From: Candidatus Nanoarchaeia archaeon
Lineage (GTDB): Archaea > Nanobdellota > Nanobdellia > SCGC-AAA011-G17 > JACPNG01
Reading direction: 5' to 3'
NCBI GenBank assembly: GCA_028713535.1
Contig: JAQTOC010000001.1
Coordinates: 49,573-113,572, forward strand
Length of the DNA: 64,000 bases
In this document: in pieces, positions 6,605 through 23,339 of the stretch
Layout: every line of letters begins with the position of its first letter
Position numbering within the stretch: position 1 is the stretch's first letter
Position numbers and translations under genes: made by a program
The notes under the pieces: generated by a model
Databases searched by the model: none
What the model was told of the DNA's origin: nothing
Seen by the model: only the letters and a program-made list of their open reading frames with translations

Positions 6605-7924
6605 TTATTTCTCAAAACCAAATTCTTTTTTAGGAGCAATTGCGTGAGGAGCTTCTCCACCATGCCAGGTAAACCTGGGTCTAATCCTTACTGGATACAA
6701 TCTTTCTGAGTTATCATCCAATAAAATTGCTGAGCCAGCCAATCTTGGCAAGTTATTCAAACTTTTTTGCAGATCTGTAATCAAATAAGACTGCATCATT
6801 GAATTAAGGGCATCAATGTCTGGCTTGGCAGTTAGTCTATGACTTAGAACAATATCTGCCTGAGTTATAACATCCTTGTGAATTTCTCCTGGCTGCTGAG
6901 TAGCTAAGACCATTGAGATTCCAGGTTGACGACCTTCTCTTATTAACTGAACTAAGGTATCTGTTGCAGGAGTTTTTCCTTCTTTTGGAAGAAATTCATG
7001 GGCTTCATCAATTAAAACCCAAACCAAGGGCATATCAAGTTTTTTTTCTTCCTCAAATAATCTTGACCTTGTTTGTATGTCTGACAGTTCTTCTTCTTTT
7101 CTTGAGGTCATTCTTTCTTCAAGAAGTTTTTTGCATATTAAGCCAATAACAAGAGATTTTATTCCCCAGCTTCCGGTTCCTTCTTTATAGCATGAAATGT
7201 CAATTATAGAAACTTTTCCTTTTCCAACTATGTTTTTTATTGGAACGCTTTCCTTGTCAAATAGACCCCAGGTCAAGGCTGCCCTAAACCTGTTTTCTGT
7301 TGCGTCCCTTACATTTTGCTCTGAGCGTTTATCTGATTGTGTTCTTGAAATAATATCATCCATCGAATAATCTTTTAGATTTTCCATCAAATCCTGGATA
7401 ACTCTTTCAATCAAAACTCCTATTGGGGAGTTTATATCAACACTGAAAACATTGCACCAGTCTCCTGCTGTCAACTCAGAAGGCTTTAATGCAAATGAAA
7501 AGTCTGCTGGAATTCCTTTTTGCCTGTAATCATTGAAATAACCTTTTGGAGTGTAAATATCAACATTCAGTCCTTTTGGAGAAATGCCCCATTTTTTTAA
7601 CAAATCTTCTTCTTTCTGGTTTGGATATTTCATTGTCCAGAAAATTCCCATTGTGTCAAAGATTAAAACTGATAACCTGTCTTTTATGTCCTTTGGAAGA
7701 TCTGAAACTTCTTCTGCTATTACACCAAGAGAAAAACTTTTTCCAGAGCCTTTTTTTCCAGAAACTAATATTGTATGGGCGCCGTTTACATCTAAATAAA
7801 CATTGTTAGCAAGGGAGGTAACCTCTCCCATCTTTACATATTGTTTTCCGATAAATATTGTTGCTTCTTTCCCATATTTTTTAAGTTCTGGTTCTGATCT
7901 TCCTATTATTATATCCTGGGTCAT
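6605..7924 (-). CDS. HerA/FtsK-superfamily P-loop ATPase (DUF87 'AAA-like' domain)
   Basis: Walker A GKKGSGKS, Walker B VWVLIDEAHEF, ~440 aa; start overlaps the stop of upstream 1450-aa surface protein (ATGA). Confidence 0.7.
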   Translation of the reverse strand: MTQDIIIGRSEPELKKYGKEATIFIGKQYVKMGEVTSLANNVYLDVNGAHTILVSGKKGSGKSFSLGVIAEEVSDLPKDIKDRLSVLIFDTMGIFWTMKYPNQKEEDLLKKWGISPKGLNVDIYTPKGYFNDYRQKGIPADFSFALKPSELTAGDWCNVFSVDINSPIGVLIERVIQDLMENLKDYSMDDIISRTQSDKRSEQNVRDATENRFRAALTWGLFDKESVPIKNIVGKGKVSIIDISCYKEGTGSWGIKSLVIGLICKKLLEERMTSRKEEELSDIQTRSRLFEEEKKLDMPLVWVLIDEAHEFLPKEGKTPATDTLVQLIREGRQPGISMVLATQQPGEIHKDVITQADIVLSHRLTAKPDIDALNSMMQSYLITDLQKSLNNLPRLAGSAILLDDNSERLYPVRIRPRFTWHGGEAPHAIAPKKEFGFEK

Positions 7925-10900
7925 ATTTTGTTTTTCCTTCTCCTGTAAAATCTGTATGCTATGAACAAAATAAATGCCATTGCTACCAATTCAAGCAAGA
8001 ACAATGGAAGGTTTTCTCCTGACAATCCAGTTGGTTTTTGTGCCTGTTCTTTTTCTTGCAAAGTCAAGACTATTTCCTTGCAGCCTTCTATTCCCTGCCT
8101 TGTCAATTCCATTGCCTGGGAGAATCTTCCTGTTGCTAATTCCATGTCTGCCTTGTTTATGTATTCCTGCAATTCCAAACATTCTGGATTTTCATTTAAC
8201 ATGTCTTTTAAGTACCTTAATTTTTCTTTTACTAACTGCTTGTCTTCCAAACCAAACTCAAGAAGGCTTACGAAGAATTTAATCGAGTCTGTTACAGAAG
8301 GATCAGACACTATTGCTTTTACAGTTATGTCTCTTTTTCCTTCTTTTGTATCCTTGTCTGTGATTATCTCCAAATCAACGTCAACTTCTTCTCCAGGGGA
8401 AAGCTTGTCTATTTTGATTTTATTCAAGTTTAGAGTTATGTCTTTTGTTGAAGCAGAAGCCTCAAGATTTATGTCTGACAACAAAACATCGCCTGTGTTT
8501 TTTACTTTGATTGGAGTAATAATTCTTTCTCCAAGGAACAAGGAGACATCTCCAGGATGCAGTATGTCAATTGTCACATATTCTGTTGCGCCTCCACCGC
8601 CTCCTCCTCCGCCACCGCCACCAGCGCTTGGGACTGAGACTGTTGGTAAAACTGCGGAGGTTACGTTTATGCTAAAGTTGTTTGCTGCCACCTCATATTC
8701 TGAATCATTCAAGATTGCCTGAACAATTTCATAGCCAGTCCATCCTGACCTGGGGGTTATTGTTACCATGTTGGAAGTGTTGCTGACAGTTATTGTTATG
8801 TCTGTTGAATTTTTTAATTCCTCGGTTTCATTCATCTGTATAAATGTAAAGTTTAATGTTTGGTTATACCTGGCGTCACCATAATCATAATCCCTGAAAT
8901 AATCATCCAGGTTAAGCAAAGTGTAACTTGTATCCTGGTTAAAGGAAATGTTTGCAATTTCTGCGTAAAATTCAGGAGGGGCATTTACGTTGCTTACTGT
9001 CAAGTTCCAGTACCAAGAAGCCTCGTAAGTTAAATCTGAGATTATTACAGTTACATTATGGGTTCCTTCATCTGTGTAATTTGCATAATAGGTAAAGGCA
9101 TTTGACTGAGTTGATGTTATTGAAGTTACATTTAAAATATTATCAACGTACCAATTATAATACAATGCTTGGCCTGTGTCAGGGTCATTCACATAAACTG
9201 TAAAGGCCTGAGAGGCATTTTCATCTATACCTGCGATGTTTCCAGAAGGAGTTCCAAGCAAGCTTGTTACAGGATCATTCACATCCGAGATATTTATTGT
9301 GAATATTCTTGAATCTTCAAGTCCAAGAGAGTCGTTGACTGTTATGTTAAGGAGCTCAATTCCGGTTTGGCTTGAATTTGGAGTAAATGTTATCTGGCCG
9401 GATGTTATGTTAATTATGAAGTTTGCCCAGGTTGTGTTTGTGTTAAAAGTAAGAGAGCCATTCTGGCCTTCTGGAGAATCTTCTTCATCTGTTGCATTTA
9501 CATCATAAACCAATGCTTCATCCTGCCTTCCTATTATCTGGTCTGTTGAAGTTATGTTTGGCCTGTCATTTACAGCATATATGCTTAAGTTAAATATCCA
9601 TTCATCTGTCAGCCCAGTAGTGTCTCTTACAGTTACATTTATGAAATGATCTCCTGCGAAAGAGTCATTTGTTGGTGTAAATAAAATTACTCCGTTTGAT
9701 GAGCCTATATCAAAGAATGACGAGTTATCCTCCCATGTCAAAACCTCCCATGTGCTGGGAATATTTAAGTCTTCATCTGTTGCATTAAATATATATGACA
9801 AAGTATCGTCTTCATTCACTGTATGATTCTCCCTTGAGGTTATGTTTGGGTTATCATTAACGTTAATAACAGTAAGGTTTACTATGCCTGACACATAATA
9901 ACCAGGAAGGTCTTTCACAGAAAGGTTTATCCAGTTTTCTCCTACAGATGTGTCGTTAGGAGTTATGTTTATCTCTCCTGTTGTTTCGTTTATTGTGATT
10001 ACAGAATCATTTGAGTAGAAGAATAATGCATCATTGTCTGCATCTGTTGCATTTAATGTGAAATTAAAGTAAAATTCAATGTCTTCTGTAAGGCTGAATT
10101 CTGTATTTGGGGTAAACACAGGAGCATTGTTTGCGTAAACTGTGAGATTTATTATTACAGAATCCTCTATTCCAGTTGAATCATTCACTGTTACATTAAT
10201 CCAGTTTTCCCCTACATTGGTCAGGCTTGGGGTGAAAGATGCTATTCCTGTTGATGAGGAGATTGTTATGTAGCTTTCATTTATGCTCCATGTTAAAAAT
10301 TCAGTGGTACCTGGACTGTCTAAGTCACCGTCTGTCGCGTTGAAATCATAATACCAAGTTATTCCTTCATAACCAGTTATGTTTTCTGCTGTTGTTATCA
10401 ATGGAGCGTCATTTACTCCAATGACTGAGAAGTTTATTATTGCTGAATCTATCAATGAGCCATCGCTTACAGTTAAGTTAAGCCTGTGTTCTCCAATATC
10501 AGTATCGGTTGGAGTTACGTTTATGTATCCTGTTGAGTTTATATCCAGCCAGGTTTCATTTAAGGAAAATGTTAATGTGTTTCCATCAACGTCTGTGGCG
10601 TTGACTGTGCAATTAAAATCAACATCTTCTGTCAAAGTTTGGTTATCACATATATAATCAAGAACTGGAGCGTCATTTACATTAGAGATTATAAACCTTA
10701 CAATCTGCGAATAACAGCCGAGAGAATCGTTAATGCTTATGTTTATCTGGTGATCCCCTACTTCTGTGTTTGTAGGAGTGAAGGAAATCAGGCCTGTGGA
10801 TGGATTTATTTCAAAGAATGAAGAATTATCTTCGAAGCTATAAGCGTCGTTTTCTTCATCTGAGCCAGATACGGTGTATGTATAAGCTGTGTCTTCTATT

Positions 10901-12273
10901 AAACTTTGGTCAGGGATATTGCTAAACTTTGGGGTGTCATTCACAGGATAGACGGTTATGTTCAATGTTGCTGAATCTGAGGCTGAATCTGAATCTGAGG
11001 TAATTAAAATTGTGTTTATGCTTCCGGTTTGTGTTTCTGTTGTGCATGTCAGGTTCATTATTCCTGTATGGAAGTCTATGTCAAAACAGCTTAAGGTGGT
11101 TCCTGCAGCATAGGTGTAATTTAAAATGTCATTTGTATCTGGATCTGTTATGTTTTCTGAAAGATTATAAGTACATATCTGGTCTTCGTAACATTCCCAA
11201 GGAGGCTGTATAAATCCGCTAACGTCCTGAGTTATTACTGGAGCTGTATTTGAAATTGTAAATGTGTCATTTGCCTCCAAGGTCGTATAGACTGTATCTA
11301 CACAAGTAGCGTTAAAGTAGAATGTTCCCTTTACATTAAAGGTTCGGTTGTATTCAAATAACTGGGAAAATTCATTGAATACCATTGCTGTTGGGGTGCC
11401 ATAATCTCCTGTCAGGTTAAAATTTACACTACAAGTAGCAGTTGTATCGTTAATTGTTATCTCTCCTGTTGAGTTTGTGTAGTTTGCAAAGAAAAATGCG
11501 TTTGTTCCAGAATACAATGTGAGGGTGTCATTTTCCGGATCTGATGAATCCCAGAGTGTAAGATTGGAAGTATCAGGAAGACCTCCTGCGTATGCTGTAA
11601 AACCATAAACTGTAAATGTAACATAATCTCCATTGACTTCAAATGGAATGTCTGTTTCAACCCACTCATCACACTTAGCCTTGCTAAAATCATAGTTTTG
11701 GCAGTGATAGATTGCGTTTATTTTATCATAAGCTTTTAATGTTAGAGTTGCGTTTTCTATTGAAACTTCCTTGCTTAAAGAAAGAACTTCGGTTTTAATA
11801 AAAGATTCCTGGGGCTGGGCAACTTTTATCTTGAGATCTGGAGGGATTTTCTTTATTCCTCTGATTCTAGCTTTAGGTGTGCTATCTTTAGAATCTTTTT
11901 CCTGGTCTAGGTATAAATCAATCACATTTGTGTCTGCGGTTTTTTCTATGTTGTAACTAAGAGGCTCAGTTGATTCTATCTGTATTGGATCTGTTGCTAT
12001 TGAAAATCCTGTATATGTCTTAAAGAAGAACAAACCCAGCAAGAATATTGCGAGTATGAAAAAGACTTCAAGGCTTGGGAGTTTGTTTTGTACTACATCT
12101 TTTTTTTCATTTTCAACATCGCCAAGATAGATGTTTTTTACTTTTCCATCTGGCCCTCTTACAGATTTATACAGATATGGACCGTAGAGTTTACCACCTT
12201 TTTTTATGTATCTCTTATGAACCATCAACGACCTCTTTTTATGTAGTACAACTAAAATAAAATAGAAATACAA
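7921..12273 (-). CDS. giant (up to 1450 aa) surface protein with cadherin-like repeats, N-terminal signal-anchor and C-terminal TM anchor
   Basis: Repeated (V/I)NDAP/VNDNP/VNDRP cadherin-type motifs; TM LPSLEVFFILAIFLLGLFFF near the N-terminus; Gly12 linker; C-terminal TM LPLFLLELVAMAFILFIAY + RRRKNKI; many N-x-S/T sequons. Alternative start ATG at 12225 (MVHKRY...). Confidence 0.8.
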   Translation of the reverse strand: MYFYFILVVLHKKRSLMVHKRYIKKGGKLYGPYLYKSVRGPDGKVKNIYLGDVENEKKDVVQNKLPSLEVFFILAIFLLGLFFFKTYTGFSIATDPIQIESTEPLSYNIEKTADTNVIDLYLDQEKDSKDSTPKARIRGIKKIPPDLKIKVAQPQESFIKTEVLSLSKEVSIENATLTLKAYDKINAIYHCQNYDFSKAKCDEWVETDIPFEVNGDYVTFTVYGFTAYAGGLPDTSNLTLWDSSDPENDTLTLYSGTNAFFFANYTNSTGEITINDTTATCSVNFNLTGDYGTPTAMVFNEFSQLFEYNRTFNVKGTFYFNATCVDTVYTTLEANDTFTISNTAPVITQDVSGFIQPPWECYEDQICTYNLSENITDPDTNDILNYTYAAGTTLSCFDIDFHTGIMNLTCTTETQTGSINTILITSDSDSASDSATLNITVYPVNDTPKFSNIPDQSLIEDTAYTYTVSGSDEENDAYSFEDNSSFFEINPSTGLISFTPTNTEVGDHQINISINDSLGCYSQIVRFIISNVNDAPVLDYICDNQTLTEDVDFNCTVNATDVDGNTLTFSLNETWLDINSTGYINVTPTDTDIGEHRLNLTVSDGSLIDSAIINFSVIGVNDAPLITTAENITGYEGITWYYDFNATDGDLDSPGTTEFLTWSINESYITISSSTGIASFTPSLTNVGENWINVTVNDSTGIEDSVIINLTVYANNAPVFTPNTEFSLTEDIEFYFNFTLNATDADNDALFFYSNDSVITINETTGEINITPNDTSVGENWINLSVKDLPGYYVSGIVNLTVINVNDNPNITSRENHTVNEDDTLSYIFNATDEDLNIPSTWEVLTWEDNSSFFDIGSSNGVILFTPTNDSFAGDHFINVTVRDTTGLTDEWIFNLSIYAVNDRPNITSTDQIIGRQDEALVYDVNATDEEDSPEGQNGSLTFNTNTTWANFIINITSGQITFTPNSSQTGIELLNITVNDSLGLEDSRIFTINISDVNDPVTSLLGTPSGNIAGIDENASQAFTVYVNDPDTGQALYYNWYVDNILNVTSITSTQSNAFTYYANYTDEGTHNVTVIISDLTYEASWYWNLTVSNVNAPPEFYAEIANISFNQDTSYTLLNLDDYFRDYDYGDARYNQTLNFTFIQMNETEELKNSTDITITVSNTSNMVTITPRSGWTGYEIVQAILNDSEYEVAANNFSINVTSAVLPTVSVPSAGGGGGGGGGGGATEYVTIDILHPGDVSLFLGERIITPIKVKNTGDVLLSDINLEASASTKDITLNLNKIKIDKLSPGEEVDVDLEIITDKDTKEGKRDITVKAIVSDPSVTDSIKFFVSLLEFGLEDKQLVKEKLRYLKDMLNENPECLELQEYINKADMELATGRFSQAMELTRQGIEGCKEIVLTLQEKEQAQKPTGLSGENLPLFLLELVAMAFILFIAYRFYRRRKNKI
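8591..8627. repeat. 37-nt GC-rich segment (poly-Gly codons) identical to 13004..13040
   Basis: cctccaccgcctcctcctccgccaccgccaccagcgc present in both cadherin-like paralogs (41/42 identical with flanks). Confidence 0.85.
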
Positions 12274-12288
12274 GGTTTTTAAACATTT

Positions 12289-14595
12289 CTAAACTTTTTG
12301 GATAAGTTTACTCAGCTTCCTGTTCAGCTTTCTAATCAATCTGAGCGATCTTCTTTTGTATCTGCCTGAAACCCCGCTGTAGAGCATCTCTATCCTGCTG
12401 CAGGTTGTTTTTGCCTTGGCATATTCTTTGTTTCTTGCTGATATAATAGCATTCTTGTAAAGCTCTTTTATTTTCCTGTATCTTTCTTTTTCTGAATTGT
12501 CCCTTATTGCTGTTAATGTTGTTCCTCTTGGTTTTTTCTTTATTATGGTTATTATTGTTATGATTAATACAAGGATTATTAACAAGGCCCACCAGCTATC
12601 TTTTGGGCAACTAAAGATTTCATTCAGGCTTATTTTCCCATCACCGCAACTTGTCAATGTTTTTGGCTTTTGGATTTCAAAACAAGGCTTGCATGCTCCG
12701 CCGCAGTCAATGTCTTCCTCGTTTTGGTTCTTGATTTTATCATCACAGGTTGGGCATGGCTTGCAAATACCACCACAATCTGCCATTATTTCATTCTGGT
12801 TCTTTATGCTGTCAAAGCAGGTTTCTACAGGAACATAAATACACTCCTGTTCCTCTTTTGGCTTGTAAACAGCAGTTCCGCAGTTTTTGAAATCAGAGCA
12901 TCTTCTTGTCTGGAATCCTTTGTAGTAATTTTCTTTTATGTACAGGCCTGAGTTCTGGCAGGATGACCAATCTGAACAGACCCATGTTTCTGCACATCTT
13001 GCACCTCCACCGCCTCCTCCTCCGCCACCGCCACCAGCGCCTCCGGATGGAGTTGTTGTAACATCGTTGACTGTTACTGTCCAGGTTTTATTCACTGTAA
13101 GAATTCCGTCAGTTGCCATTGCCATGATTGTATGAATTCCTTGGGAGTTGTAGTTTGGACTGTAAGAGTACTGGTTATTTGTTTCTCCGCTTTGTGCAGA
13201 ATCATCAAAGTACCATTGGATTGAAGGAGTTGTTCCATCAGGATCACTTGAAGTTATATTAAATTCCTGGGTTGAGCCTTCGTTCATGGAAAATGAGAGA
13301 GTTGTTGGGTAGTAAGTATCTATTACAGGAGCCTGGCTTGCAGCAGTTATTGTAAATGAAATTATTTCTGAATCTTCTGCACCTTCAGTGTCATTGACTG
13401 TTATGTTTATTGAATAGGTTGCTGCACCTGAATAAGTTGCGTTTACTAATGCAGCAGTGTTATTAACAAATGTTAAGTTCATTATTGTATCATTACTAAT
13501 GAATGTTAATGGGTAATTTTCTTCCTCATCTGTTGCATAAACATAAAATTCCAGTGAATTGCCTGATTCAACTGTTTTTGAGCCTATTGAATCAAGAATA
13601 GGGGGATCATTTACATTAATTATTTCAAACAATACAACCTGAGAATCAAGTGCAGAGCCATCTACTACGTAAATTTCAACACTATAATTTCCTACATCAG
13701 AATAAGTTGGAGTAAAAAGAATTATTCCTGTTTCTTCTGCTATCACAAACAAGGAAGTATTGTCATAGAATTTTATTGCATCGTTATCAGGGTCTGTTGC
13801 GTTTACATCATATTCAAAAAGAACGTCTTCATAAAGTTCATCCCCGCTTTCTATTGTGAAGTTTGGGACTTCTGTAAGGGCTGGAGCATCATTTACATTA
13901 GTGACTGTGAAGTTTATTGTTTCTGAATCGTATAAATTAGCACTGTTTGTTACGTTTATTGTTATGTCGTAAGAGCCAACCTCTGAGTTTGTTGGAGTAA
14001 ATGAGATAACTCCGGTTATGGGATTAATTGTAAATATTGTGGAATCTGAAGCATAGGTAAGATCCAACCCGTTTGGATCTGTGGCATTGATTTCAATGTA
14101 ATATTCCTGGTCTTCTGTTGCTGTTAAGTCTCCAATTGGATCAAGGATTGGACTGTTTGAAATTATTTCAAGAATAAATTCTCCATCTATGTAAGTGTTA
14201 TTTGTATCGCATATTGTGTTGTTTGCCCAGATTGTTATTGAATGGTTTCCTTCTTGGCCTGATGCTGGAGTGAATGAGATTTCTCCACTGGTTGGATCAA
14301 TGCCGAACATGGATGAATTATCTGAATAAACTATTGTGGAACCTGCTGAAGCTGAGGTGTTAATATCATAATAAAATGCTGTCCCTACCTCTCCTGACTT
14401 ATTTTCCAATGAAGGGCTGAATGCAGGAAGTGTGGCTATGCATACTCCTACACTTCCAACTGGTTTTCCTGTTATCTGCTGTATAAAATAAGGGCTTTCA
14501 TTGATTATAGTAATTGTTGACAGAATTGTTGTTAGTATAATAGTTACATATATGAAAGCAAGTGTTTTGTTTGAATTCCACCTCATTTTTATCAT
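12289..14595 (-). CDS. 768-aa surface protein: cadherin-like repeats, poly-Gly hinge, Cys-rich stalk, C-terminal TM anchor and basic cytoplasmic tail
   Basis: N-terminal TM/signal; NVNDAPALTE and NVNDPPILD repeats; GGAGGGGGGGGGGGA; ~30 Cys in CxxC-type spacing; TM WWALLIILVLIITIITII + KKKPRG. Confidence 0.8.
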   Translation of the reverse strand: MIKMRWNSNKTLAFIYVTIILTTILSTITIINESPYFIQQITGKPVGSVGVCIATLPAFSPSLENKSGEVGTAFYYDINTSASAGSTIVYSDNSSMFGIDPTSGEISFTPASGQEGNHSITIWANNTICDTNNTYIDGEFILEIISNSPILDPIGDLTATEDQEYYIEINATDPNGLDLTYASDSTIFTINPITGVISFTPTNSEVGSYDITINVTNSANLYDSETINFTVTNVNDAPALTEVPNFTIESGDELYEDVLFEYDVNATDPDNDAIKFYDNTSLFVIAEETGIILFTPTYSDVGNYSVEIYVVDGSALDSQVVLFEIINVNDPPILDSIGSKTVESGNSLEFYVYATDEEENYPLTFISNDTIMNLTFVNNTAALVNATYSGAATYSINITVNDTEGAEDSEIISFTITAASQAPVIDTYYPTTLSFSMNEGSTQEFNITSSDPDGTTPSIQWYFDDSAQSGETNNQYSYSPNYNSQGIHTIMAMATDGILTVNKTWTVTVNDVTTTPSGGAGGGGGGGGGGGARCAETWVCSDWSSCQNSGLYIKENYYKGFQTRRCSDFKNCGTAVYKPKEEQECIYVPVETCFDSIKNQNEIMADCGGICKPCPTCDDKIKNQNEEDIDCGGACKPCFEIQKPKTLTSCGDGKISLNEIFSCPKDSWWALLIILVLIITIITIIKKKPRGTTLTAIRDNSEKERYRKIKELYKNAIISARNKEYAKAKTTCSRIEMLYSGVSGRYKRRSLRLIRKLNRKLSKLIQKV
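13004..13040. repeat. second copy of the 37-nt poly-Gly-coding segment
   Basis: identical to 8591..8627. Confidence 0.85.
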
Positions 14596-14625: not shown

Positions 14626-15039
14626 CTAGAATCTAGTAGTTATGATTCTTAATTTAGATTGATAGGTTCCTTTTTCTGCGTTTTCAGGCACGAGAATTTT
14701 AAACTCAAGTTCTTTTAGTTCGTCTTTTTCCATCTTAAAATTGTTTTCGTTTACATAAATCCAGTTTTTCAATGTACCTTTTATTTTTATGTTCACATAG
14801 GCTTTATTGTATTCCTGGTTTGTTATCCTGATGCTTCTTGAACCACTATTTCCAGGAGGGATTGTCCCAAATGTTAAGTATGTGGTGTTTAAATCAAAAC
14901 CAAGATTTTCATTTACGTTTACTTCTATTGGTATCTCTTCAACGTCAAGGACAATATAATAATTGTAAAGAACAACCATAAAAAGAATCGTTGTAGGAAC
15001 TACTGCGATTATTAATGGGATTAGGTTACTTCTTTTCAT
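14626..15039 (-). CDS. small N-terminally anchored secreted protein
   Basis: MKRSNLIPLIIAVVPTTILFMVVLY TM then beta-rich 110 aa; overlaps upstream gene by 14 nt. Confidence 0.45.
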   Translation of the reverse strand: MKRSNLIPLIIAVVPTTILFMVVLYNYYIVLDVEEIPIEVNVNENLGFDLNTTYLTFGTIPPGNSGSRSIRITNQEYNKAYVNIKIKGTLKNWIYVNENNFKMEKDELKELEFKILVPENAEKGTYQSKLRIITTRF

Positions 15040-16135
15040 TTTTGTGTTTTACCATGTTTATAACAAAAAAGGCTATCAGCAAGATTATCACAAATATCAA
15101 AACAAAAGTAGTTATCTTTAATTTTGGATTTATAACTTCCAGCATTATTTCTTTTTCTATTGTTTTTCCATTGTAATTAACAAGAATCTTTGCTGGGTAT
15201 ATGCTTGGTTCATAATCGGTTGAATCAAAGTAAATATTTGCTGTTTTTTCCTCCCAGGAATTAATTGAGACTGGAGGGCCCCTGAAAACAGGAACATATT
15301 CCTTATCTTTTTTTACAAAAAGCTCAAGATAGGCATTTTCTATCTTTGAATTCCAGAGGTTTTTGATTTTAACATTTATTATTGCGGTTGTGTCTTTTTC
15401 TATTTTATTTATTGAAACGTCAACTATTTTTATTATTTCAGCCCATACTTTGAAAGTTGTTTCAGTGCTTTTATGGTTCTGGTCAAAGTAAATTATTGCA
15501 CTTGCCTGATAATCTCCTGGTTTAGAGGTTTGCCAGGAAGTTTTTAGTGTTTTTTCTTCATTAACATTAAGAGCTGTTGAAGGTATTTTTAATTTTGCTA
15601 TCTCTTCGTTTTGGCTTATCATTGAAATTGTTGCTTCAAGGTTTTTAATATTTTCCTTGCCGATGTTTTTTACAACAATCTGGACCGGAATCTGCCTGTT
15701 TATTTCAGAATCCTCTATTTTAATAACGCTTTCAATATATTTTCCGGGGTAAGGAACATAAGCGTAGATTTTTATTTCAACTCCGCCAATAGCTCCAACT
15801 AAACCCTGACCACCCTTGGATTCTAAGATAACAATTGAGTTTTCATTTATTCCTGGAGATAGATTTTCAGAGGAAAAAAGCCTGCATGAGATATCTTCCC
15901 ATGCATGGGGCTCAATCGTTATTTCTTTTTCAATTGTTATTGAATTATTTAACTGGCCTCTTGGCTCTATGAGAAATGTTTTTGTTTCTTCTGCATTGTT
16001 TGACAAACTAAACGTGCATGAAAATTCCTTGTTTGGCTCATAACTAATCTCCAAAGAGGGAGGCTGCACCAATATTGCAAGGGAGGGACAAGAAACAAGA
16101 ACTATCAAAATTATTATCAACCCTCTTTTTTCCAT
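15026..16135 (-). CDS. surface protein, paralog A: signal peptide, beta-sandwich-like repeats, C-terminal TM anchor
   Basis: Start taken at MEKRGLIIILIVLVSCPSLAIL; shares VGAIGG...VPYPGKY and ILVNYNGKTIEK blocks with 17001..18218; C-terminal TM FVLIFVIILLIAFFVI + KHKNEKK. Confidence 0.6.
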   Translation of the reverse strand: MEKRGLIIILIVLVSCPSLAILVQPPSLEISYEPNKEFSCTFSLSNNAEETKTFLIEPRGQLNNSITIEKEITIEPHAWEDISCRLFSSENLSPGINENSIVILESKGGQGLVGAIGGVEIKIYAYVPYPGKYIESVIKIEDSEINRQIPVQIVVKNIGKENIKNLEATISMISQNEEIAKLKIPSTALNVNEEKTLKTSWQTSKPGDYQASAIIYFDQNHKSTETTFKVWAEIIKIVDVSINKIEKDTTAIINVKIKNLWNSKIENAYLELFVKKDKEYVPVFRGPPVSINSWEEKTANIYFDSTDYEPSIYPAKILVNYNGKTIEKEIMLEVINPKLKITTFVLIFVIILLIAFFVINMVKHKNEKK

Positions 16136-16166
16136 AAGATGAAAGAAGCGATTTTGTTTATAAATC

Positions 16167-16793
16167 TTATGAGGCTGTTGCAATAAATGTAAGGGTTCCT
16201 GATTTCTGGCCTGAGAGCTCGTCATCTGGAATTGTGATGTTAATGTCAACTATTACAGAGTCAGAGTCATCTGTGAAGTTTAAAGAACATATGGCCCATT
16301 CTGAAGCTGCATTTGGGACTGGCCTCCAATCTCCAGAACTTAGACCACCAGGATAGCCCACTGAGCAGCCGTTTCCAGGAGCTGAACTTGGATAATTTAA
16401 TTCTACGTGAGTTGTGTTATACAAAAGATGTTTGCTGTTGTCAAATGTTGCTGAGCTGAACAAGCTTTCAGTTTCCTGTATTGAAATATTAATGAGAATT
16501 GAGCCGTCGTTTGTTAGATTGAAGCCACAGGCATAATCTGCTGCACAGGCATCTCCTTCAATGTTTTTTTTCAGATAAGAAACTTTTCCATCCCCTGGAT
16601 TTGAAGAGGTAAAGTTTACATCTGCATTTACAATTGAGATGCCAAGGCTTGAGTTTATTGAAATATTAACTGAACCGGTTGTGTGCCCTGTGATAATGGA
16701 GAGCTTTGGGGAGCTGGCAATGATTCCTGTTATGGAGATTCCAACTGCTAGTATAGCTAACGCCACAAGAAATTTACTGGATGGTTCTTTCAT
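16167..16793 (-). CDS. secreted Ser/Asn-rich protein with signal peptide
   Basis: MKEPSSKFLVALAILAVGISITGIIAS...; 208 aa, no C-terminal TM. Confidence 0.5.
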   Translation of the reverse strand: MKEPSSKFLVALAILAVGISITGIIASSPKLSIITGHTTGSVNISINSSLGISIVNADVNFTSSNPGDGKVSYLKKNIEGDACAADYACGFNLTNDGSILINISIQETESLFSSATFDNSKHLLYNTTHVELNYPSSAPGNGCSVGYPGGLSSGDWRPVPNAASEWAICSLNFTDDSDSVIVDINITIPDDELSGQKSGTLTFIATAS

Positions 16794-16977
16794 TTTTCTC
16801 TTTTGTCTTGTTTATTTCATTCACAGAGACCCCGATTTTTCCTGTAGGAGTTTCAATGGAATCAAATGTTTTTACATTATCCTTGTTTTTGATTGCCATA
16901 AGGGTCCCTGCTGCAGAAATTATAATTAAAACTACAAGGATTATTGCAAGAGTCTTGTTTGAAATCTTTTTTTCCAT
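16774..16977 (-). CDS. small single-TM protein
   Basis: MEKKISNKTLAIILVVLIIISAAGTLMAI...; overlaps next gene by 20 nt. Confidence 0.3.
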   Translation of the reverse strand: MEKKISNKTLAIILVVLIIISAAGTLMAIKNKDNVKTFDSIETPTGKIGVSVNEINKTKEKNERTIQ

Positions 16978-17000
16978 TTTAATTGAATTATTAAGTTAAT

Positions 17001-18218
17001 TTAAATAGTTTTTTCTATTTTGTTTTTTCTCCTTATGTATACAAACCAGGCTATGTTGATTATTATCAGGACAATTACAAGTATTGTCAGTATGGTATTC
17101 CTGCCAAGGCCTGCTGCAGCAATTGCCTCACCAGTTCCTAATGAGGAGAACCTTATTGAGCCGAGTGTAATGTAAGCTTTCATGTTTTTTTCTGTTGTTT
17201 TTCCATTGTAATTAAGTATTATTTTTGCATCATAGGTTCCTTCTTTTACAAATTCAGTGTCCCAGTAAGCCAGCAATTCCTGTTTTGACAAAGGTTCGAA
17301 GTTCACGTTTGCACTCTTGAAGTTTCCGGCTTCGTTTCCATTTTCATCAGTAATAACGACTTGGGCATAAACGTCGTTTACCTTGTCATTCCACTTGTTT
17401 TCTGCTGAGATTGTGAACTTTGCAACCTGGCCGAGCTGGAAGTTCTTGGATTCTATGCTCAATATCTCTATGAAAAGATTTCCAACGTAAAATGTTTTTT
17501 CTGCTCTTGCATACTTGCCGTCATAACTTAAAGTGGCTACTGCGTGATATGCTCCGGGATTTACCTCTGCTTTCCATTGGGAGGTTACTTCTTTCTTGTC
17601 TTTTGGATCTATAGAAATTTCATTTGTTGTTACAGTCGCGATTTTTTCATTTGTTGGCCCTAAAATATCTATTGTTGCCTTTGCCTGATTTATTCTTTCT
17701 GTTCCAAAATTCGATATGGGAATTATGAAATTAACATAGTCATTTACCTGGGCATCTGAAATTTCTAAATCTATCTTTGCATATTTTCCAGGATAGGGCA
17801 CCTTTATCTCTATGATTAATGCAACTGCTGCTGTGGCACCAACAAAAGCCTGGCCTTCTGAATTGGATGGAATCTCCAATGCAATTATTTTTAACTGGTG
17901 AGTTCCCGGCTCTTCTATCTTTTCCGGCAAAGTTAAATCAAACTTAAATTCTTTGGATTCTTCTGCTGATGACAATGAAATAATTGAATCGTACATTGTT
18001 ATTAAGTCACTTAGCTCGGATTTTTCTGCGTATAAGACAACCTGCATGTCTTTCTTTTCATTGTTTAATACCTTGAAACTGAATGTTTCTTTCTTGTTTG
18101 CTTCAAAGTCTGTTGTTATTTTACCAGGAGTTATACCTATTGCTTTTACTTCTACTGAAAATAAAATAGTCAGGATTATCAAAACCATTATTGTTTTTAT
18201 TAAAATATTTTTATTCAT
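17001..18218 (-). CDS. surface protein, paralog B: signal peptide, beta-sandwich-like repeats, C-terminal TM anchor
   Basis: MNKNILIKTIMVLIILTILFSVEVKA signal; VGATAAVALIIEIKVPYPGKY; IILNYNGKTTEK; C-terminal TM ILTILVIVLIIINIAWFVYI + RRKNK. Confidence 0.6.
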   Translation of the reverse strand: MNKNILIKTIMVLIILTILFSVEVKAIGITPGKITTDFEANKKETFSFKVLNNEKKDMQVVLYAEKSELSDLITMYDSIISLSSAEESKEFKFDLTLPEKIEEPGTHQLKIIALEIPSNSEGQAFVGATAAVALIIEIKVPYPGKYAKIDLEISDAQVNDYVNFIIPISNFGTERINQAKATIDILGPTNEKIATVTTNEISIDPKDKKEVTSQWKAEVNPGAYHAVATLSYDGKYARAEKTFYVGNLFIEILSIESKNFQLGQVAKFTISAENKWNDKVNDVYAQVVITDENGNEAGNFKSANVNFEPLSKQELLAYWDTEFVKEGTYDAKIILNYNGKTTEKNMKAYITLGSIRFSSLGTGEAIAAAGLGRNTILTILVIVLIIINIAWFVYIRRKNKIEKTI

Positions 18219-18708
18219 ATTGCTCAGCTTTTACCCTTGTGTCTTTTTTTAATGTTAGAGATTCGTCCATGTCAAGAACTGCCTGACCTGTAATTGATAT
18301 CTTGTTTTTCAGGGATTCTTCTATTGAAACATTTAGTTTTGAATTTCCGTCGTTGGTTACTATGTAGTTTTCTTCTTCCTGTTCTAGTTTTAGAGATACT
18401 TTGCTTTCGATATCAAAATCTGAGGTTTTTGAGGAAAACAAACCAACCACTTTCCAGTAGATTTTTTCTAATGGCAGGTTTTCCTCAGGAACGTATGAAC
18501 AGCATGGAACTTGTTTTTTTATTGGCGAGGTAAACTCTGGATTGTTGTCTATTAAAATTGTGTAAGTCATAGGAATTCCTGTCCATTTGAATTCTGGCTT
18601 TCTTTCGTAAGTTATTTTATCCTGGGTTTTTGGAAGAGGAAACAAAATAGTCAGGATTAGAATTATCAAAATCAAATTCACGATTCCAATTTTTAATATT
18701 GTTTTCAT
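18211..18708 (-). CDS. small N-terminally anchored protein
   Basis: ATG at 18708 (MKTILKIGIVNLILIILILTILFPL) overlaps stop of upstream gene as ATGA; ORF-track start at 18720 is a GTG. Confidence 0.45.
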   Translation of the reverse strand: MKTILKIGIVNLILIILILTILFPLPKTQDKITYERKPEFKWTGIPMTYTILIDNNPEFTSPIKKQVPCCSYVPEENLPLEKIYWKVVGLFSSKTSDFDIESKVSLKLEQEEENYIVTNDGNSKLNVSIEESLKNKISITGQAVLDMDESLTLKKDTRVKAEQYE

Positions 18709-19943
18709 GCTGAAACCCACCCTGTAAATACTATGTATGCAATCTTGTCTCCTGCAGGCTCATCTAAAGGAACTTGGACTAGGAAATCTATTTCTGCTTC
18801 GTCATTTGTATCAGAATAATTCAGTTGGGAGATTGCAGTTTCATTGGATATAGGAACGTTTTGCCAGTCTAATTGAGAGGAACCGCCATTAAATGAAAGC
18901 TCTTCTCCTGCTTTTGTGTCTATCTTGTACTGAAAATAAGACGTTGGAGATTGCTTTGAGGTCCACAATCCAGTTGAGCCTTCTCCTAATGATATGTTAA
19001 CATCCACCAATGTGTTTCCATCATTTCTTATTACCAATGGAACTGGAGAGTCCTCTGTTGTATTTGATACATCTCCTACGTTAAGAGTTTCAAAGTCTGT
19101 TGAGGAGGTTGGAAGTGAGAGTATGACCTGCGAGGGAATTAAGAAAGTCCTGTTCTCTGACCAACCACCATATTCAATCCCATCAAAAGCAGACACTCTC
19201 CAAGTATAATTAACATCAACATCAAATTCTATCAAAGAAGTGTATTTTGTTGGGGTTGCTATTTCTGCTATTCCTGTTACATTTATTACAGGACTCTGGA
19301 AATCTGATGAAACTTCATCAACTTGGATAAAATATGTTATTGGATCTCCGTCTGGGTCTGTTGTGTTTGACCATTCAAAAGTTATTGTTTTATCCACTAT
19401 GGTTACATTTCCGTTTTCTGGAAGATATAAATCAACAACGTTTGGAGCATTATTTCCTGTATTAAATGAGCCTGATTCTAAGTCAACCAAGTTTGTTGAG
19501 TCTCTTGCAGTTATGTTCCATGTATACACTCCTGACAAGTCTGCTTTTATTGTTGTTGAGTTCCAGGTTATTCCGTCGAAGGTTGCATTGATATTGTCTA
19601 CAATTGCTGTTCCGTTTGGAAGAACTATTGACATGTTTACTTCAAGAAGATTACTATCTGCATCTGAAACTGTTGCAGTAAGATAAAATTCTATGTTTCT
19701 TGTTATTGTTTCTGGAATGGTTTTATTGTCTGTTATTGAAGGAGAATTGTCTGATTCTGCAAAGAAAAACCCTAGAGAATTCTGGTAGCTTGCTGATGAT
19801 GAATTCCCACTTATTGTTCCTATGAGCATGTTGTTTTGATAGCTTGCTGATGATGAATTTGTTCCTCCTGATGAAATAGTTGTTGTGTTTGAATTATAAC
19901 TATCTGAGCCAGTATTTGCTGCAATGGTTACTGTTGCAAGCAA
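18705..19943 (-). CDS. Ser/Thr/Asn-rich surface protein; either separate (TTG start) or the frameshifted C-terminal continuation of the 1127-aa protein
   Basis: First in-frame start is TTG at 19943; no ATG; N-terminus ILLATVTIAANTG looks like the tail of a hydrophobic segment; frame open upstream to 19998. Confidence 0.5.
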   Translation of the reverse strand: MLATVTIAANTGSDSYNSNTTTISSGGTNSSSASYQNNMLIGTISGNSSSASYQNSLGFFFAESDNSPSITDNKTIPETITRNIEFYLTATVSDADSNLLEVNMSIVLPNGTAIVDNINATFDGITWNSTTIKADLSGVYTWNITARDSTNLVDLESGSFNTGNNAPNVVDLYLPENGNVTIVDKTITFEWSNTTDPDGDPITYFIQVDEVSSDFQSPVINVTGIAEIATPTKYTSLIEFDVDVNYTWRVSAFDGIEYGGWSENRTFLIPSQVILSLPTSSTDFETLNVGDVSNTTEDSPVPLVIRNDGNTLVDVNISLGEGSTGLWTSKQSPTSYFQYKIDTKAGEELSFNGGSSQLDWQNVPISNETAISQLNYSDTNDEAEIDFLVQVPLDEPAGDKIAYIVFTGWVSA

Positions 19944-19954
19944 GATTAAAAATA

Positions 19955-22900
19955 TTACATAATCTGTGAGGTTTCGTTTAATTTTACTTCGCCTCCTTTA
20001 TTTATTGTAATGTACTGGCCTAGATCTGTAAAATTAAAGGATGAATTTGTCAGGTATAACTTCCCTGCGTCCTGAATTGTTAGGTTATACAAGAAATTAT
20101 AGGTTTTTTCTATCCAATGGCAGGTTGTATTTAAAAACCAGTTTGAGGCTGGAGGAGTACAAAGATCGATGTTTATAGACTCAACTTCTGTGGAGTTTAG
20201 GTAAACACTGTTGTAAATTATTTCTATGAACAAATCTTTTAGTCCTGATGTTTGAATATTTGGAGTTGTTACATTTGCTTCCCATGCAGTACCGTTATAT
20301 GCAACTTGTTCCTCTGTGAGGTTTGAACAATTTCCTGCTGAGCAGGCATCACAATTTAACCCATAACCACATCCTGCACAACTTCCTATTGCATCGCATG
20401 AAGGATTGGTTTCACTACATCCACATGTAGAGGAACAAGTTCCTGCCTGACAGACATAACTTGTTGTTCCATAACAATTTGCTGCATCCCAGGAACATCC
20501 GCATGTAGAGCAGTCTCCTTGACTTTGTCCGGTACAGGAAGCTGGAGATCCATCGCATCCAGACCAGGTGCAACCCTGAGCTACACATGTTTCTGAAGTT
20601 GATTTGGTAGCACATGCAGAAGGAGTTCCTGTACAGGCATAAACTGCGGTACAATATGTACTACAGCTAAGACAGTTGGCTTCTGTAGAACCTGCACAGA
20701 CAGCGGTACCACCTATACATCCGCCTGGGAGAGGTTCTAGGGTACAACCCTGAGTACTACAACCAGTACATGATGTTCTTGGAATACTCTCACATTCTCC
20801 TTCACCAGTACAACTTGAATATGTCCAGTCACATCCAAAGCTTTCACATGTAGATTGACCTGCTCCTGTGTGAGTTGAACAGGCAGCAGGTGCTCCTTCA
20901 CATCCATCCCAGGTACATCCACAGGTTTCACAATTTGTTTGGCTTGAATCATGAGTATCACATACATCTGGATCTCCTGCACCAGCATCATAACAATTTG
21001 CAACATCCCAAGAGCATCCACAAGAAACGCAACTACCTACGCCATAAGTTGCACACGCAGATGCTGAACCACTACAACCATAAGCTGTGTAATTACATTG
21101 ACTGCATTCATTACAGTTTTTAGTTTCGTTTGATGCTGTACAGTTTAAAGTTCCTGCACATGAATTTGTTTCTGCTATTGTTGCATCTATTCCATCGATG
21201 GTTGCGTTTGTCAGATTTACTCCAGATGTTATTTCTGTTAGATTATAAACATTAAAGAATATTGAAATAATTTCATATGCTGTTGCATTTCTTACAAGTT
21301 CTGTTGTTGGATTCAGGGCAGTTATGTTTGGTTTTTCATAAACTGTGAATGTAACTGAACTTAAATTTTCTAGTCCATCTGTTCCGTTGCTGTAAACAAA
21401 ATAGGTCTGGCTTCCAAGGCTTGGAGACAGACCTGTCAAGTTAGTTCCGCATTCAATTGTTGTATTAATATCTCCGATATTTAATGAATACCAACAAGTA
21501 TCGAGAGCTTCTGTGGTATTTGTAACTGTGTAATTCAGATCGGTAACTTCGCCTTCAACGTACGATGTATTTTCTGGATATGCTATTGCTATATCTGGGG
21601 GAAAATCTGTTATTGTTATGCAATTTCCATCCCATGGAGCCCCGTTGTAATCATATAATTCAAACCATCCTGCAGTATCATTCATTATAGTAGCAATAAA
21701 AGCATCTTTACATAAAACTCCATAGGTATTTGTATCAAATGCTCCTTCCCAAGTTTGGTGGGGAGCATCCAAATCTACAATTCCAGCATCAGATAAACTA
21801 ATGTTTACTACGTTATTAAATGCTGAACCATCTTCAACAAAATCAAAAATAAATATAGTTGAATTACTTCCACCTGTAGTGGCAAAAGTTGTTGCATTTA
21901 ATCTTACAATGGCTATCCCAGTTCTTTTTCCTAATTCCCCTGGTGGCAATGAATAAGGAGTAGAAGCAACGGCTGTTGCATCACTGTGGTTTGCGCTTGC
22001 CAGATAATAATTGGCCTGAGTTGCAGCACTTGTATAATCATAATAATTGACCATGTAATAGTAATTGTTCATTACTGCGACCCTAACATTTCCAGCTGCT
22101 CCGGCACCAACGTCTACTACATAGGAAGATGATCCTTGGTTGTATTCTGTTCTTGTTTTAACTATAATATCATCAAGGTTGTTATCATAGTAACTCTGGA
22201 CTACATTAATCCTGCCTACTGCACCACCATCTTTCATACAACAATCCCCGTGAACCTGAGAGTTTTCATCTCCAGTACTTTGTATCGCACTTATATTTGA
22301 ATTAGCGAATGTGACGGTGTTAGTGCCAGTATATAAAAATCCCCTTGCCCTAATCATATTATCATTGTTATTTATCCATTCAATTACAAAATCTGTGGAG
22401 TTAACAACAACTATATTATTGCTTCTATCATATAATCCTGTAGTTGTATCAGCAGTAGCTCCATTTAATTTTGTTCCAGAAGAAGAACCCCCGTTTAACA
22501 TTCCTGCAATATCAAATATCTCAAAATCTATTTGAGTAGCATTTCCATTTTGTCCAACTACAACAAAGGACGTATCATTTAATCCACCAATATCAACTGG
22601 ATGGGAAGTACATTGTGCTCCTGTTGTGGAAAATCCAAATGTTGTTTCCCATGTAGAACCAATCTGAGTTCCGTTAACATCAAATACTGCAATGTGATAA
22701 ATATTATCTATATCATTACACCATGCCATTGCAACATAAGAATTGTTTAAGATTGTGACTGAGGCCTGGGTATCTGTATTTGTTGCTGTGGTGAATATGG
22801 CTGTTCCAAACCCAATCAGAACTTTTTGTTCTGGGATTACCTCATCAACATGGACTTCTATGGAACTTTCCTCCAGGAAGTTTATCTGGGAGATATTTGT

Positions 22901-23338
22901 AGATATTTTGTTTCCTTCAGTCCTAACAGGAAGTTTGTCCAGATTGTCAAAATCAGAAATTACTTCTTCAAGAGATTTTTCTGTTGATAGATAATTATCC
23001 TTTAAGTCTGATATACATCTTATTTTTTCTTCATCAAATTTAGACTTGCAATTTTCTATTTCTTTTTTTATTATTTCTTTTGGTTTTATTGTGATTATAA
23101 ACGTGTTTTTATCGTTTTGGATAATATTGAAGTCCAGATATGCTTCAAAATAGTCTTGTTTTTCAACTTGCATTCTTAAGTTTTTTTCTGGGAATTGTGT
23201 GAATAGTTTTGGAGAGGTTTTGATGACGTTGGTTGTTGTTTCTTTGTATTTTAGCAGGAGAATTATAATTAATATAATAAAAATAGTGATTGCTAATAAA
23301 AATAGTATTTTTTTCTTATTGAGAGGATTTTTGGTCAT
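19955..23338 (-). CDS. giant 1127-aa surface protein with N-terminal TM anchor and Cys-rich (CxCGC[ST]WD) module
   Basis: MTKNPLNKKKILFLLAITIFIILIIILLL TM; ~70 Cys concentrated in residues ~770-1000; start 1 nt after stop of upstream giant gene. Confidence 0.75.
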   Translation of the reverse strand: MTKNPLNKKKILFLLAITIFIILIIILLLKYKETTTNVIKTSPKLFTQFPEKNLRMQVEKQDYFEAYLDFNIIQNDKNTFIITIKPKEIIKKEIENCKSKFDEEKIRCISDLKDNYLSTEKSLEEVISDFDNLDKLPVRTEGNKISTNISQINFLEESSIEVHVDEVIPEQKVLIGFGTAIFTTATNTDTQASVTILNNSYVAMAWCNDIDNIYHIAVFDVNGTQIGSTWETTFGFSTTGAQCTSHPVDIGGLNDTSFVVVGQNGNATQIDFEIFDIAGMLNGGSSSGTKLNGATADTTTGLYDRSNNIVVVNSTDFVIEWINNNDNMIRARGFLYTGTNTVTFANSNISAIQSTGDENSQVHGDCCMKDGGAVGRINVVQSYYDNNLDDIIVKTRTEYNQGSSSYVVDVGAGAAGNVRVAVMNNYYYMVNYYDYTSAATQANYYLASANHSDATAVASTPYSLPPGELGKRTGIAIVRLNATTFATTGGSNSTIFIFDFVEDGSAFNNVVNISLSDAGIVDLDAPHQTWEGAFDTNTYGVLCKDAFIATIMNDTAGWFELYDYNGAPWDGNCITITDFPPDIAIAYPENTSYVEGEVTDLNYTVTNTTEALDTCWYSLNIGDINTTIECGTNLTGLSPSLGSQTYFVYSNGTDGLENLSSVTFTVYEKPNITALNPTTELVRNATAYEIISIFFNVYNLTEITSGVNLTNATIDGIDATIAETNSCAGTLNCTASNETKNCNECSQCNYTAYGCSGSASACATYGVGSCVSCGCSWDVANCYDAGAGDPDVCDTHDSSQTNCETCGCTWDGCEGAPAACSTHTGAGQSTCESFGCDWTYSSCTGEGECESIPRTSCTGCSTQGCTLEPLPGGCIGGTAVCAGSTEANCLSCSTYCTAVYACTGTPSACATKSTSETCVAQGCTWSGCDGSPASCTGQSQGDCSTCGCSWDAANCYGTTSYVCQAGTCSSTCGCSETNPSCDAIGSCAGCGYGLNCDACSAGNCSNLTEEQVAYNGTAWEANVTTPNIQTSGLKDLFIEIIYNSVYLNSTEVESINIDLCTPPASNWFLNTTCHWIEKTYNFLYNLTIQDAGKLYLTNSSFNFTDLGQYITINKGGEVKLNETSQIM

Positions 23339-23339
23339 T

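Follow-up and report, generated by a model that had tools for sequence, protein, structure and literature searches.

Ectopic gene conversion and concerted evolution of prokaryotic paralogs are well documented (PMC6053082), and the mtrA duplicates of methanogens provide an archaeal case (PMC4632066). In Mycobacterium tuberculosis, the tandem genes PE_PGRS17 and PE_PGRS18 have undergone gene conversion, a variant block having been copied between the paralogs in some lineages only (Karboul et al. 2006, PMC1762029). Here we analyze a 64,000-nt stretch of DNA from a Candidatus Nanoarchaeia archaeon (assembly GCA_028713535.1, contig JAQTOC010000001.1, positions 49,573 to 113,572; hereafter the window). 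Two of its genes, gene 1 and gene 2, lie in tandem, encode proteins with immunoglobulin (Ig)- and cadherin-like repeats, and share an identical 37-nt tract that encodes a run of eleven glycines, referred to below as the hinge. The event in the window adds a very short example to a process already known, and its closest analogue is the PE_PGRS17/18 conversion.

In both systems the genes are tandem surface-associated paralogs, the substrate is a repetitive coding sequence rich in glycine and GGN codons, and the event is limited to a lineage. However, the PE_PGRS17/18 conversion involves hundreds of nucleotides, whereas the tract described here measures about 40 nt, sits in an AT-rich DPANN host and comes from one genome with no population sample. 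The paralogs in the window are also much further apart. The Ig repeats of their ectodomains are only ~31% identical in protein sequence, and past the hinge the modules show no relationship (local alignment score 28). As in concerted evolution, the tract shows greater likeness between paralogs of one genome than between orthologs of different genomes. Cases of concerted evolution, however, are long-lasting and extend over whole genes or domains, while the window holds a single recent micro-patch with no sustained homogenization.

An identical tract in two tandem genes

The 37-mer CCTCCACCGCCTCCTCCTCCGCCACCGCCACCAGCGC occurs in two exact copies on the plus strand of the window, at 8591-8627 and 13004-13040. 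A preliminary description made from the sequence alone had reported this pair, and we recovered it, together with the agreement of 41/42 nt when the left flank is included (copy 1 then being 8586-8627). That description took the quoted letters for the coding strand, but gene 1 and gene 2 are minus-strand genes and the letters are antisense. Copy 1 lies in gene 1 (7921..12273, minus strand), a 1450-aa open reading frame (ORF) that begins with TTG, and its glycine codons occupy 8590-8622. Copy 2 lies in gene 2 (12289..14595, minus strand), which encodes a 768-aa protein (NCBI MDD5177716.1) of this Candidatus Nanoarchaeia (DPANN) metagenome-assembled genome (MAG), carried by a contig of 120.6 kb, and its glycine codons occupy 13003-13035. 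On the sense strand both copies read (x)GC GCT GGT GGC GGT GGC GGA GGA GGA GGC GGT GGA GG(C/T) GCA and encode Ala-Gly11-Ala, within VPSA-G11-ATEY in gene 1 and PSGGA-G11-ARCAE in gene 2, where the run is preceded by additional GGA residues (S-G-G-A-G11-A). The linker of 11 to 12 glycines proposed earlier is therefore present, but both runs are exactly G11. Its placement at the boundary between an Ig/cadherin-like ectodomain and a membrane-proximal module holds in both proteins.

The two copies are direct repeats, 4413 nt apart and in equal reading frame. No third copy was found in the window with up to three mismatches allowed, and the two tracts are the only runs of (GGN)>=5 in the 64 kb. Outside the tract, the 80-nt flanks of the two copies are 27% and 37% identical, which is random, and the longest word shared by gene 1 and gene 2 after the 37-nt tract is 14 nt. 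A discrete tract with diverged flanks is the pattern by which ectopic gene conversion is recognized.

We asked how much of this identity follows from composition. Glycine codons impose GG, which makes 67% G+C obligatory in the tract, and the G+C content at third codon positions is 27%, no higher than the overall 31-40% of the window. Because the G+C of the tract is simply that of GGN codons, there is no GC island that needs an explanation. The "perfectly conserved GC island" of the preliminary description fails on its other count as well, since the nucleotides of the tract are not conserved in relatives, as set out below. Shared protein sequence and codon usage are not sufficient for the identity either. 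The probability of ten identical glycine codons is 2e-5 with the glycine codon usage of the window and 6e-6 with that of poly-Gly tracts, and the probability of at least 10 of 11 ranges from 5e-5 to 1e-3, the upper value being obtained with a generous empirical per-codon match rate of 0.415 from slid tracts. When synonymous codons were shuffled 1000 times within each gene, which leaves both proteins and both G11 runs unchanged, the longest shared word was 11-28 nt, compared with 37 observed; none of 100 dinucleotide shuffles of the sequence contained two 37-mer matches. The 37-nt identity is not a coincidence.

Codon choice in the tracts has a character of its own. Glycine is encoded by GGT, GGC and GGA in proportions of 31%, 27% and 35% in five poly-Gly tracts of this clade, while GGA makes up 51% of glycine codons in the genes of the window overall; GGT and GGC together account for 59% in poly-Gly tracts versus a genome average of 38%. 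This mixing may reflect avoidance of slippage-prone perfect triplet repeats, or tRNA supply.

The glycine run is old and its nucleotide identity is not

A scan of species-representative genomes yielded 80 loci for comparison. In an alignment of 21 homologs of gene 2 from Nanoarchaeota, Woesearchaeota and other DPANN lineages (32-69% identical to the gene 2 protein of the window), the glycine run falls in the same column, immediately N-terminal to the motif C-x-x-x-W-x-C-x-x-W-x-x-C, which does not vary; at four positions of the run, variation is absent or nearly so. Proteins of the gene 1 type carry G5-G11 at the boundary between a long ectodomain and a CARDB-like domain, with ~220-265 residues remaining to the C-terminus; one such poly-Gly protein belongs to a bacterium of the candidate phyla radiation (Uhrbacteria). 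A separate homolog search with the C-terminal 450 aa of gene 1 returned only four proteins, probably because low-complexity words swamped its candidates. Tract length varies from G6 to G16 across genomes, and the hinge occupies the same domain boundary of both families in many Nano-, Woese- and Pacearchaeota. The poly-Gly hinge is an ancient protein-level feature of both families.

The tandem pair of gene 2 and gene 1 is also found in seven other loci (L005, L006, L010, L020, L025, L027 and L042 in our numbering). The gene 2-like members have ~470-560 aa ahead of the run and 180-270 aa after it, and the gene 1-like members ~1070-1260 aa ahead and 207-230 aa after. The best in-register codon matches between the two tracts of a pair are 4/11 and 3/8 in the syntenic orthologs (L001/L005 and L002/L006, at 69% and 65% amino acid identity, respectively) and 3/7, 4/6, 2/9, 6/10 and 2/6 in the five more distant genomes, versus 10/11 in the window. 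Shared words of 28 and 53 nt in L020 and L025 were discarded, as they proved to be the same physical DNA in overlapping ORF extensions.

The closest complete relatives are GCA_028714095.1 (L001/L005) and GCA_028714375.1 (L002/L006), whose orthologs are 65-76% identical and stand in the order gene 2, gene 1, HerA-like ATPase. In the former, the gene 2 tract reads GGC GGT GGA GGT GGC GGC GGA GGT GGA GGA GGA and the gene 1 tract GGT GGC GGT GGA GGC GGC GGG GGC GGA GGT GGA. In the latter, the runs are G10 in gene 2 and G8 in gene 1, with differing codons, and the tracts of L002 are reproduced exactly by the independent Logan assemblies L003 and L004. In L001, three small opposite-strand genes lie between gene 2 and gene 1 (12390-13921 of that sequence) and widen the hinge-to-hinge spacing to 6169 nt; they encode 315 aa, 96 aa with DUF134/sigma70_r4-like domains, and 80 aa with DUF5320.

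L085, a strain from JGI metagenome 3300035701, is much closer to the window, with an identity of 90% for DNA and 91% for protein. The gene 2 tract of L085 reads gga ggc gct GGT GGC GGA GGG GGT GGA GGC GGT GGA GGA gca. It is one codon shorter than that of the window and differs in the middle, sharing the start 'ggc gct GGT GGC' and the end 'GGA GGC GGT GGA GG'. A tract that differs at 90% DNA identity therefore diverges at an ordinary pace. The paralogs of the window, then, agree at 37/37 nt, whereas comparison with the orthologous tracts of L005, L006 and L085 shows several third-position differences and length changes. The 37-mer was not found in metagenome and viral contig collections. Because relatives keep the glycines with differing third positions, the comparison marks the nucleotide identity in the window as lineage-specific homogenization and not conservation.

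A probable short gene conversion between the paralogs

The explanation that we consider probable is that a short tract underwent ectopic gene conversion between the tandem paralogs, in a recent event specific to this lineage. In this scenario the run of 6-16 glycines would form a hinge that gives flexibility between the membrane-proximal module and the Ig/cadherin-like ectodomain. In the lineage of the window, a non-reciprocal recombination would have copied ~37-41 nt of one hinge over the other, either by ectopic gene conversion or by template switching during replication or repair. The GGN-repeat microhomology of two tracts in direct orientation, 4.4 kb apart, could have seeded the exchange, and its outcome would be the erasure of synonymous differences between the two tracts.

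The edges of the tract bear on direction. In gene 1 orthologs the run follows CCT or ACT rather than GCT, while the 'GC GCT' front and the 'GGA GGC GGT GGA GG' end are of the gene 2 type, as seen in L085. Because the GC-GCT at the 5' edge is of this type, gene 2 (768 aa) was probably the donor and gene 1 (1450 aa) the recipient. The conversion altered at most one or two residues beside the hinge, and a functional consequence is not evident.

Another pair of the same kind holds a second patch. In L005, gene 1 and gene 2 share 34 nt exactly (10275-10308 and 16621-16654) within ~60 nt of ~90% identity, with random flanks. This patch lies inside an Ig repeat and not at the hinge, where it encodes DTSLFDIDSSTG, and the corresponding sites in the window are not identical. 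Short conversions therefore seem to recur between these paralogs without being bound to the hinge. In L006, L010, L027 and L042 the longest word shared by the two genes is 13-15 nt.

Several points weigh against conversion as the explanation. The lineage is represented by one genome assembly. The contig of L085 stops before the gene 1 hinge, so that the unconverted state of gene 1 is unseen in the sub-lineage, and a protein-seeded metagenome scan for the gene 1 hinge region of this close strain found no relative. Direction is ambiguous in that the first four glycine codons (GGT GGC GGT GGC) also match gene 1 orthologs. Periodic GGN tracts can match highly by chance once they are slid along each other, as do L045 and L082 at 9/10 codons. 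Finally, for recombination of the RecA/RadA type, an imperfect homology of 37 nt is short.

The event on its own matters little. It offers a clean, datable case of a ~40-nt ectopic conversion in a DPANN archaeon, with a low-complexity GGN tract as its seed, and it carries the caution that, where a genome is AT-rich, identical GC-rich islands can amount to glycine codons plus local homogenization. The hinge and the surface-protein cluster around it are possibly the more useful by-product, modest and descriptive as it is. The homopolymeric glycine hinge and the conserved two-gene (and larger) cluster are common to Nano-, Woese- and Pacearchaeota.

Alternative explanations

An artefact of assembly or read correction, in which k-mer correction or bulge removal homogenized similar but non-identical tracts at low coverage, is an unlikely source of the identity. 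The related MAGs have only ~5x coverage and, judging from similar isolate and contig names, possibly come from the same study; moreover, exact look-ups of the proteins of the window genome returned no encoding contigs, so that it was not recovered in any independent assembly. However, the 37-nt tract has unique flanks and is spanned whole by any 100-150-nt read, and the tracts of the relatives are reproduced in independent Logan assemblies. Such an artefact would also need true tracts that were already nearly identical, which would itself require conversion. Gene order and both architectures agree with the orthologs, and this collinearity argues against a mis-join in the window. Independent convergence of slippage and codon bias on the same 33-37 nt is extremely unlikely. 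GGN tracts are repetitive and can reach the 9/10 match between genomes noted above, but the null models put the probability at about 6e-6 to 1e-3, none of the 1000 synonymous shuffles exceeded 28 nt, and the identity extends over the non-glycine GC-GCT. We regard as highly improbable a nucleotide-level selection acting since the duplication, whether on mRNA structure, a G-quadruplex, a translational pause, or a protein- or small RNA-binding site. The eleven GG blocks on the sense strand suggest, from their sequence rather than from a motif scan, that a two-tetrad G-quadruplex could form, and the excess of GGT and GGC in poly-Gly tracts could be read in the same direction. Yet orthologs at 65-69% amino acid identity, and even the strain at 90% DNA identity, keep the glycines and not the nucleotides, the 37-mer is missing from the contig collections, and the predicted folds of the two tract contexts differ. 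Constraint by RNA structure or a G-quadruplex was rejected on the ground that relatives do not keep the nucleotides.

The preliminary description had read the tract as a signature of gene conversion or cassette exchange that allows domain shuffling between the two proteins. Conversion is the best reading of an identity that is beyond chance; exchange and shuffling are not supported, each gene being collinear with its orthologs. On the stronger reading, the hinge tracts would be a junction for functional recombination, and their in-frame direct repeats would permit deletions, fusions or cassette exchanges that reshuffle ectodomains and anchors. Indeed, the two direct repeats share one reading frame, their recombination would join the gene 2 ectodomain in frame to the gene 1 anchor, and both families retain poly-Gly exactly at the module boundary. 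Nevertheless, no swapped architecture was found in the eight genomes with both genes or in 125 homologs. The Cys-rich module of gene 2 always follows an ectodomain of gene 2 size and the CARDB-like module always a long one, the tracts of the two genes lack long identity in 7/8 genomes, and the L005 patch sits away from the hinge. The check proposed earlier, an alignment of orthologs for swapped ectodomains upstream of the hinge, showed each gene to be collinear on either side of it in the two related genomes: identity to the two orthologs is 67% and 72% in the N-terminal part and 69% and 76% in the C-terminal part of gene 1, and 67% and 67% and then 72% and 62% in gene 2. Pfam and NCBIfam scans of 18 ORFs of the cluster and its flanks, which did not include the 169-, 208- and 126-aa ORFs, detected no recombinase, integrase or reverse transcriptase. 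Programmed rearrangement and cassette systems (shufflons, pilin-type silent cassettes, diversity-generating retroelements) have such a dedicated recombinase or reverse transcriptase, with promoterless or silent cassettes or inverted repeats and variable modules; the locus described here has complete genes, a direct repeat and constant combinations of modules. A junction of this kind is thus very unlikely, and we hold to the same low estimate for the broader proposal that the poly-Gly hinge, fixed at this boundary in both adjacent families across DPANN archaea, is a built-in in-frame recombination joint that occasionally yields chimeric adhesins or deletions within populations, with the patch as the footprint of an exchange. 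Cassette exchange is unsupported, while in-frame fusion through the direct repeats could physically occur. In a weaker variant of the joint proposal, the hinge might be a conserved site of proteolytic shedding.

The two surface proteins

Both genes are complete, each with its own start and its own transmembrane (TM) anchors, and their products are membrane-anchored, probably glycosylated surface proteins. The true start of gene 1 is most likely the ATG at 12225, because the orthologs start at the equivalent ATG (MVHKRYIKKGGK...), both of them with the same MVHKRY(I/V)KK peptide. This start gives a protein of 1434 aa and leaves a 63-nt gap after gene 2, matching L002. A conserved basic peptide, MVHKRY[IV]KK.GK[IL]YGPYLYKS[IV]R...GKVKNIYL, precedes the first TM helix of gene 1.

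From the N-terminal side, the gene 1 protein consists of the basic motif, a TM helix (aa 64-90), a long ectodomain of tandem-95/Big_9/cadherin-like repeats with 71 N-x-S/T sequons, the G11 run (aa 1218-1228), a weakly matching CARDB/DUF7507-like beta-sandwich, a helical region and a second TM helix (aa 1420-1443). The part after the hinge comprises 222 residues. Matches to Big_9 (94.8, cut-off 23.6), Cadherin_4 (51.9, cut-off 25.1) and the tandem-95 model NF012211 (114.6, cut-off 90) all pass, as does that to He_PIG. The CARDB/DUF7507 matches of the stalk are below threshold only (Pfam, E up to 5).

The gene 2 protein begins with a hydrophobic helix, followed by five Ig-like/PKD beta-sandwich domains (aa ~55-511), a disordered linker with G11 at aa 521-531, a Cys-rich module, a TM helix (aa 664-689) and a helical cytoplasmic tail. 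Big_9 (57.4), He_PIG (45.1) and PKD_4 (37.0) score above their cut-offs, whereas Cadherin_4 (17.2, below 25.1) and NF012211 (57, below 90) do not. In an AlphaFold2 model built on 21 homologs, the five beta-sandwich domains have predicted local distance difference test (pLDDT) values of 85-93 and the cytoplasmic helical tail is confident; G11 falls in a linker (aa 514-536) with pLDDT below 50, right after the last beta-sandwich. The Cys-rich module lies within aa 532-768 (12289-13002), with AlphaFold2 confidence below 50. It consists of C-x-E-x-W-x-C-x-D-W-S-x-C and then two C-F-D-x-I-x-N-Q-x-E-x-x-x-D-C-G-G-x-C-x-P-C units, and its cysteines are invariant in the 21 homologs. We take the spacing of the first motif to be thrombospondin-repeat-like. 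The module matched no family in Pfam (E up to 5) and no sequence in the PDB.

Like tandem-95/Big_9 adhesins, the two proteins contain repeated beta-sandwich domains of ~90 aa that carry VNDxP and acidic D-x-D motifs. Unlike those adhesins, they have a G6-G16 hinge fixed at the boundary of ectodomain and stalk and a C-terminal TM helix, and gene 2 has the Cys-rich module. Surface proteins with PGF-CTERM/archaeosortase or GlyGly-CTERM/rhombosortase signals likewise combine a glycine motif with a C-terminal TM helix and a basic tail, but in these signals the glycine motif directly abuts the TM helix at the extreme C-terminus. In the window, however, a folded module of ~130-190 aa intervenes, the distance from the end of the hinge to the TM helix being 133 aa in gene 2 and 191 aa in gene 1, and in gene 2 a cytoplasmic tail of ~80 aa extends beyond it. 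The PGF-CTERM and GlyGly-CTERM families were absent from the NCBIfam matches. The proteins of gene 1 and gene 2 are not members of this class, and a sortase-type glycine signal was ruled out by the position of the hinge relative to the TM helix.

Genomic context

Gene 1 and gene 2 are part of a run of eleven co-directional genes (6605-27302, minus strand), mostly for beta-sandwich surface proteins. The last of them encodes a HerA/FtsK-superfamily ATPase (DUF87; 6605..7924, minus strand) and overlaps the gene 1 stop by 4 nt. Synteny of the ATPase gene extends to the two closest related genomes, and tblastn found it in no others; its protein has weak matches to HerA, CedB/CedD and EssC. Upstream of gene 2, eight co-directional genes (14626..27302, minus strand; 137, 407, 208, 405, 169, 412, 1127 and 1320 aa) encode secreted or membrane-anchored beta-sandwich proteins. 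The cluster of eleven is fully syntenic in the two related Nanoarchaeia (L005, L006). The 412-, 405-, 407- and 137-aa genes and gene 2 are conserved in many loci of Woese-, Pace-, Nano- and Aenigmarchaeota, and in seven of these together with gene 1. A search of the literature on DPANN archaea, aimed at poly-glycine hinges or surface proteins of the cadherin-like kind, returned nothing relevant on the hinge or the cluster. The cluster is a candidate cell-surface or host-contact apparatus of DPANN episymbionts.

Inside the 1320-aa gene, tandem DNA repeats occur at 23562-25454, with units of ~183-186 nt and ~300 nt that are 67-81% identical, and its repeat-domain protein matched no Pfam family above threshold. 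Beyond the cluster, a 427-aa ORF (31278-32561, minus strand) matches the small subunit of DNA primase, below the Pfam cut-off, and the large subunit, above it. These matches suggest a fused PriS-PriL primase, an arrangement that has been reported for Nanoarchaeota.

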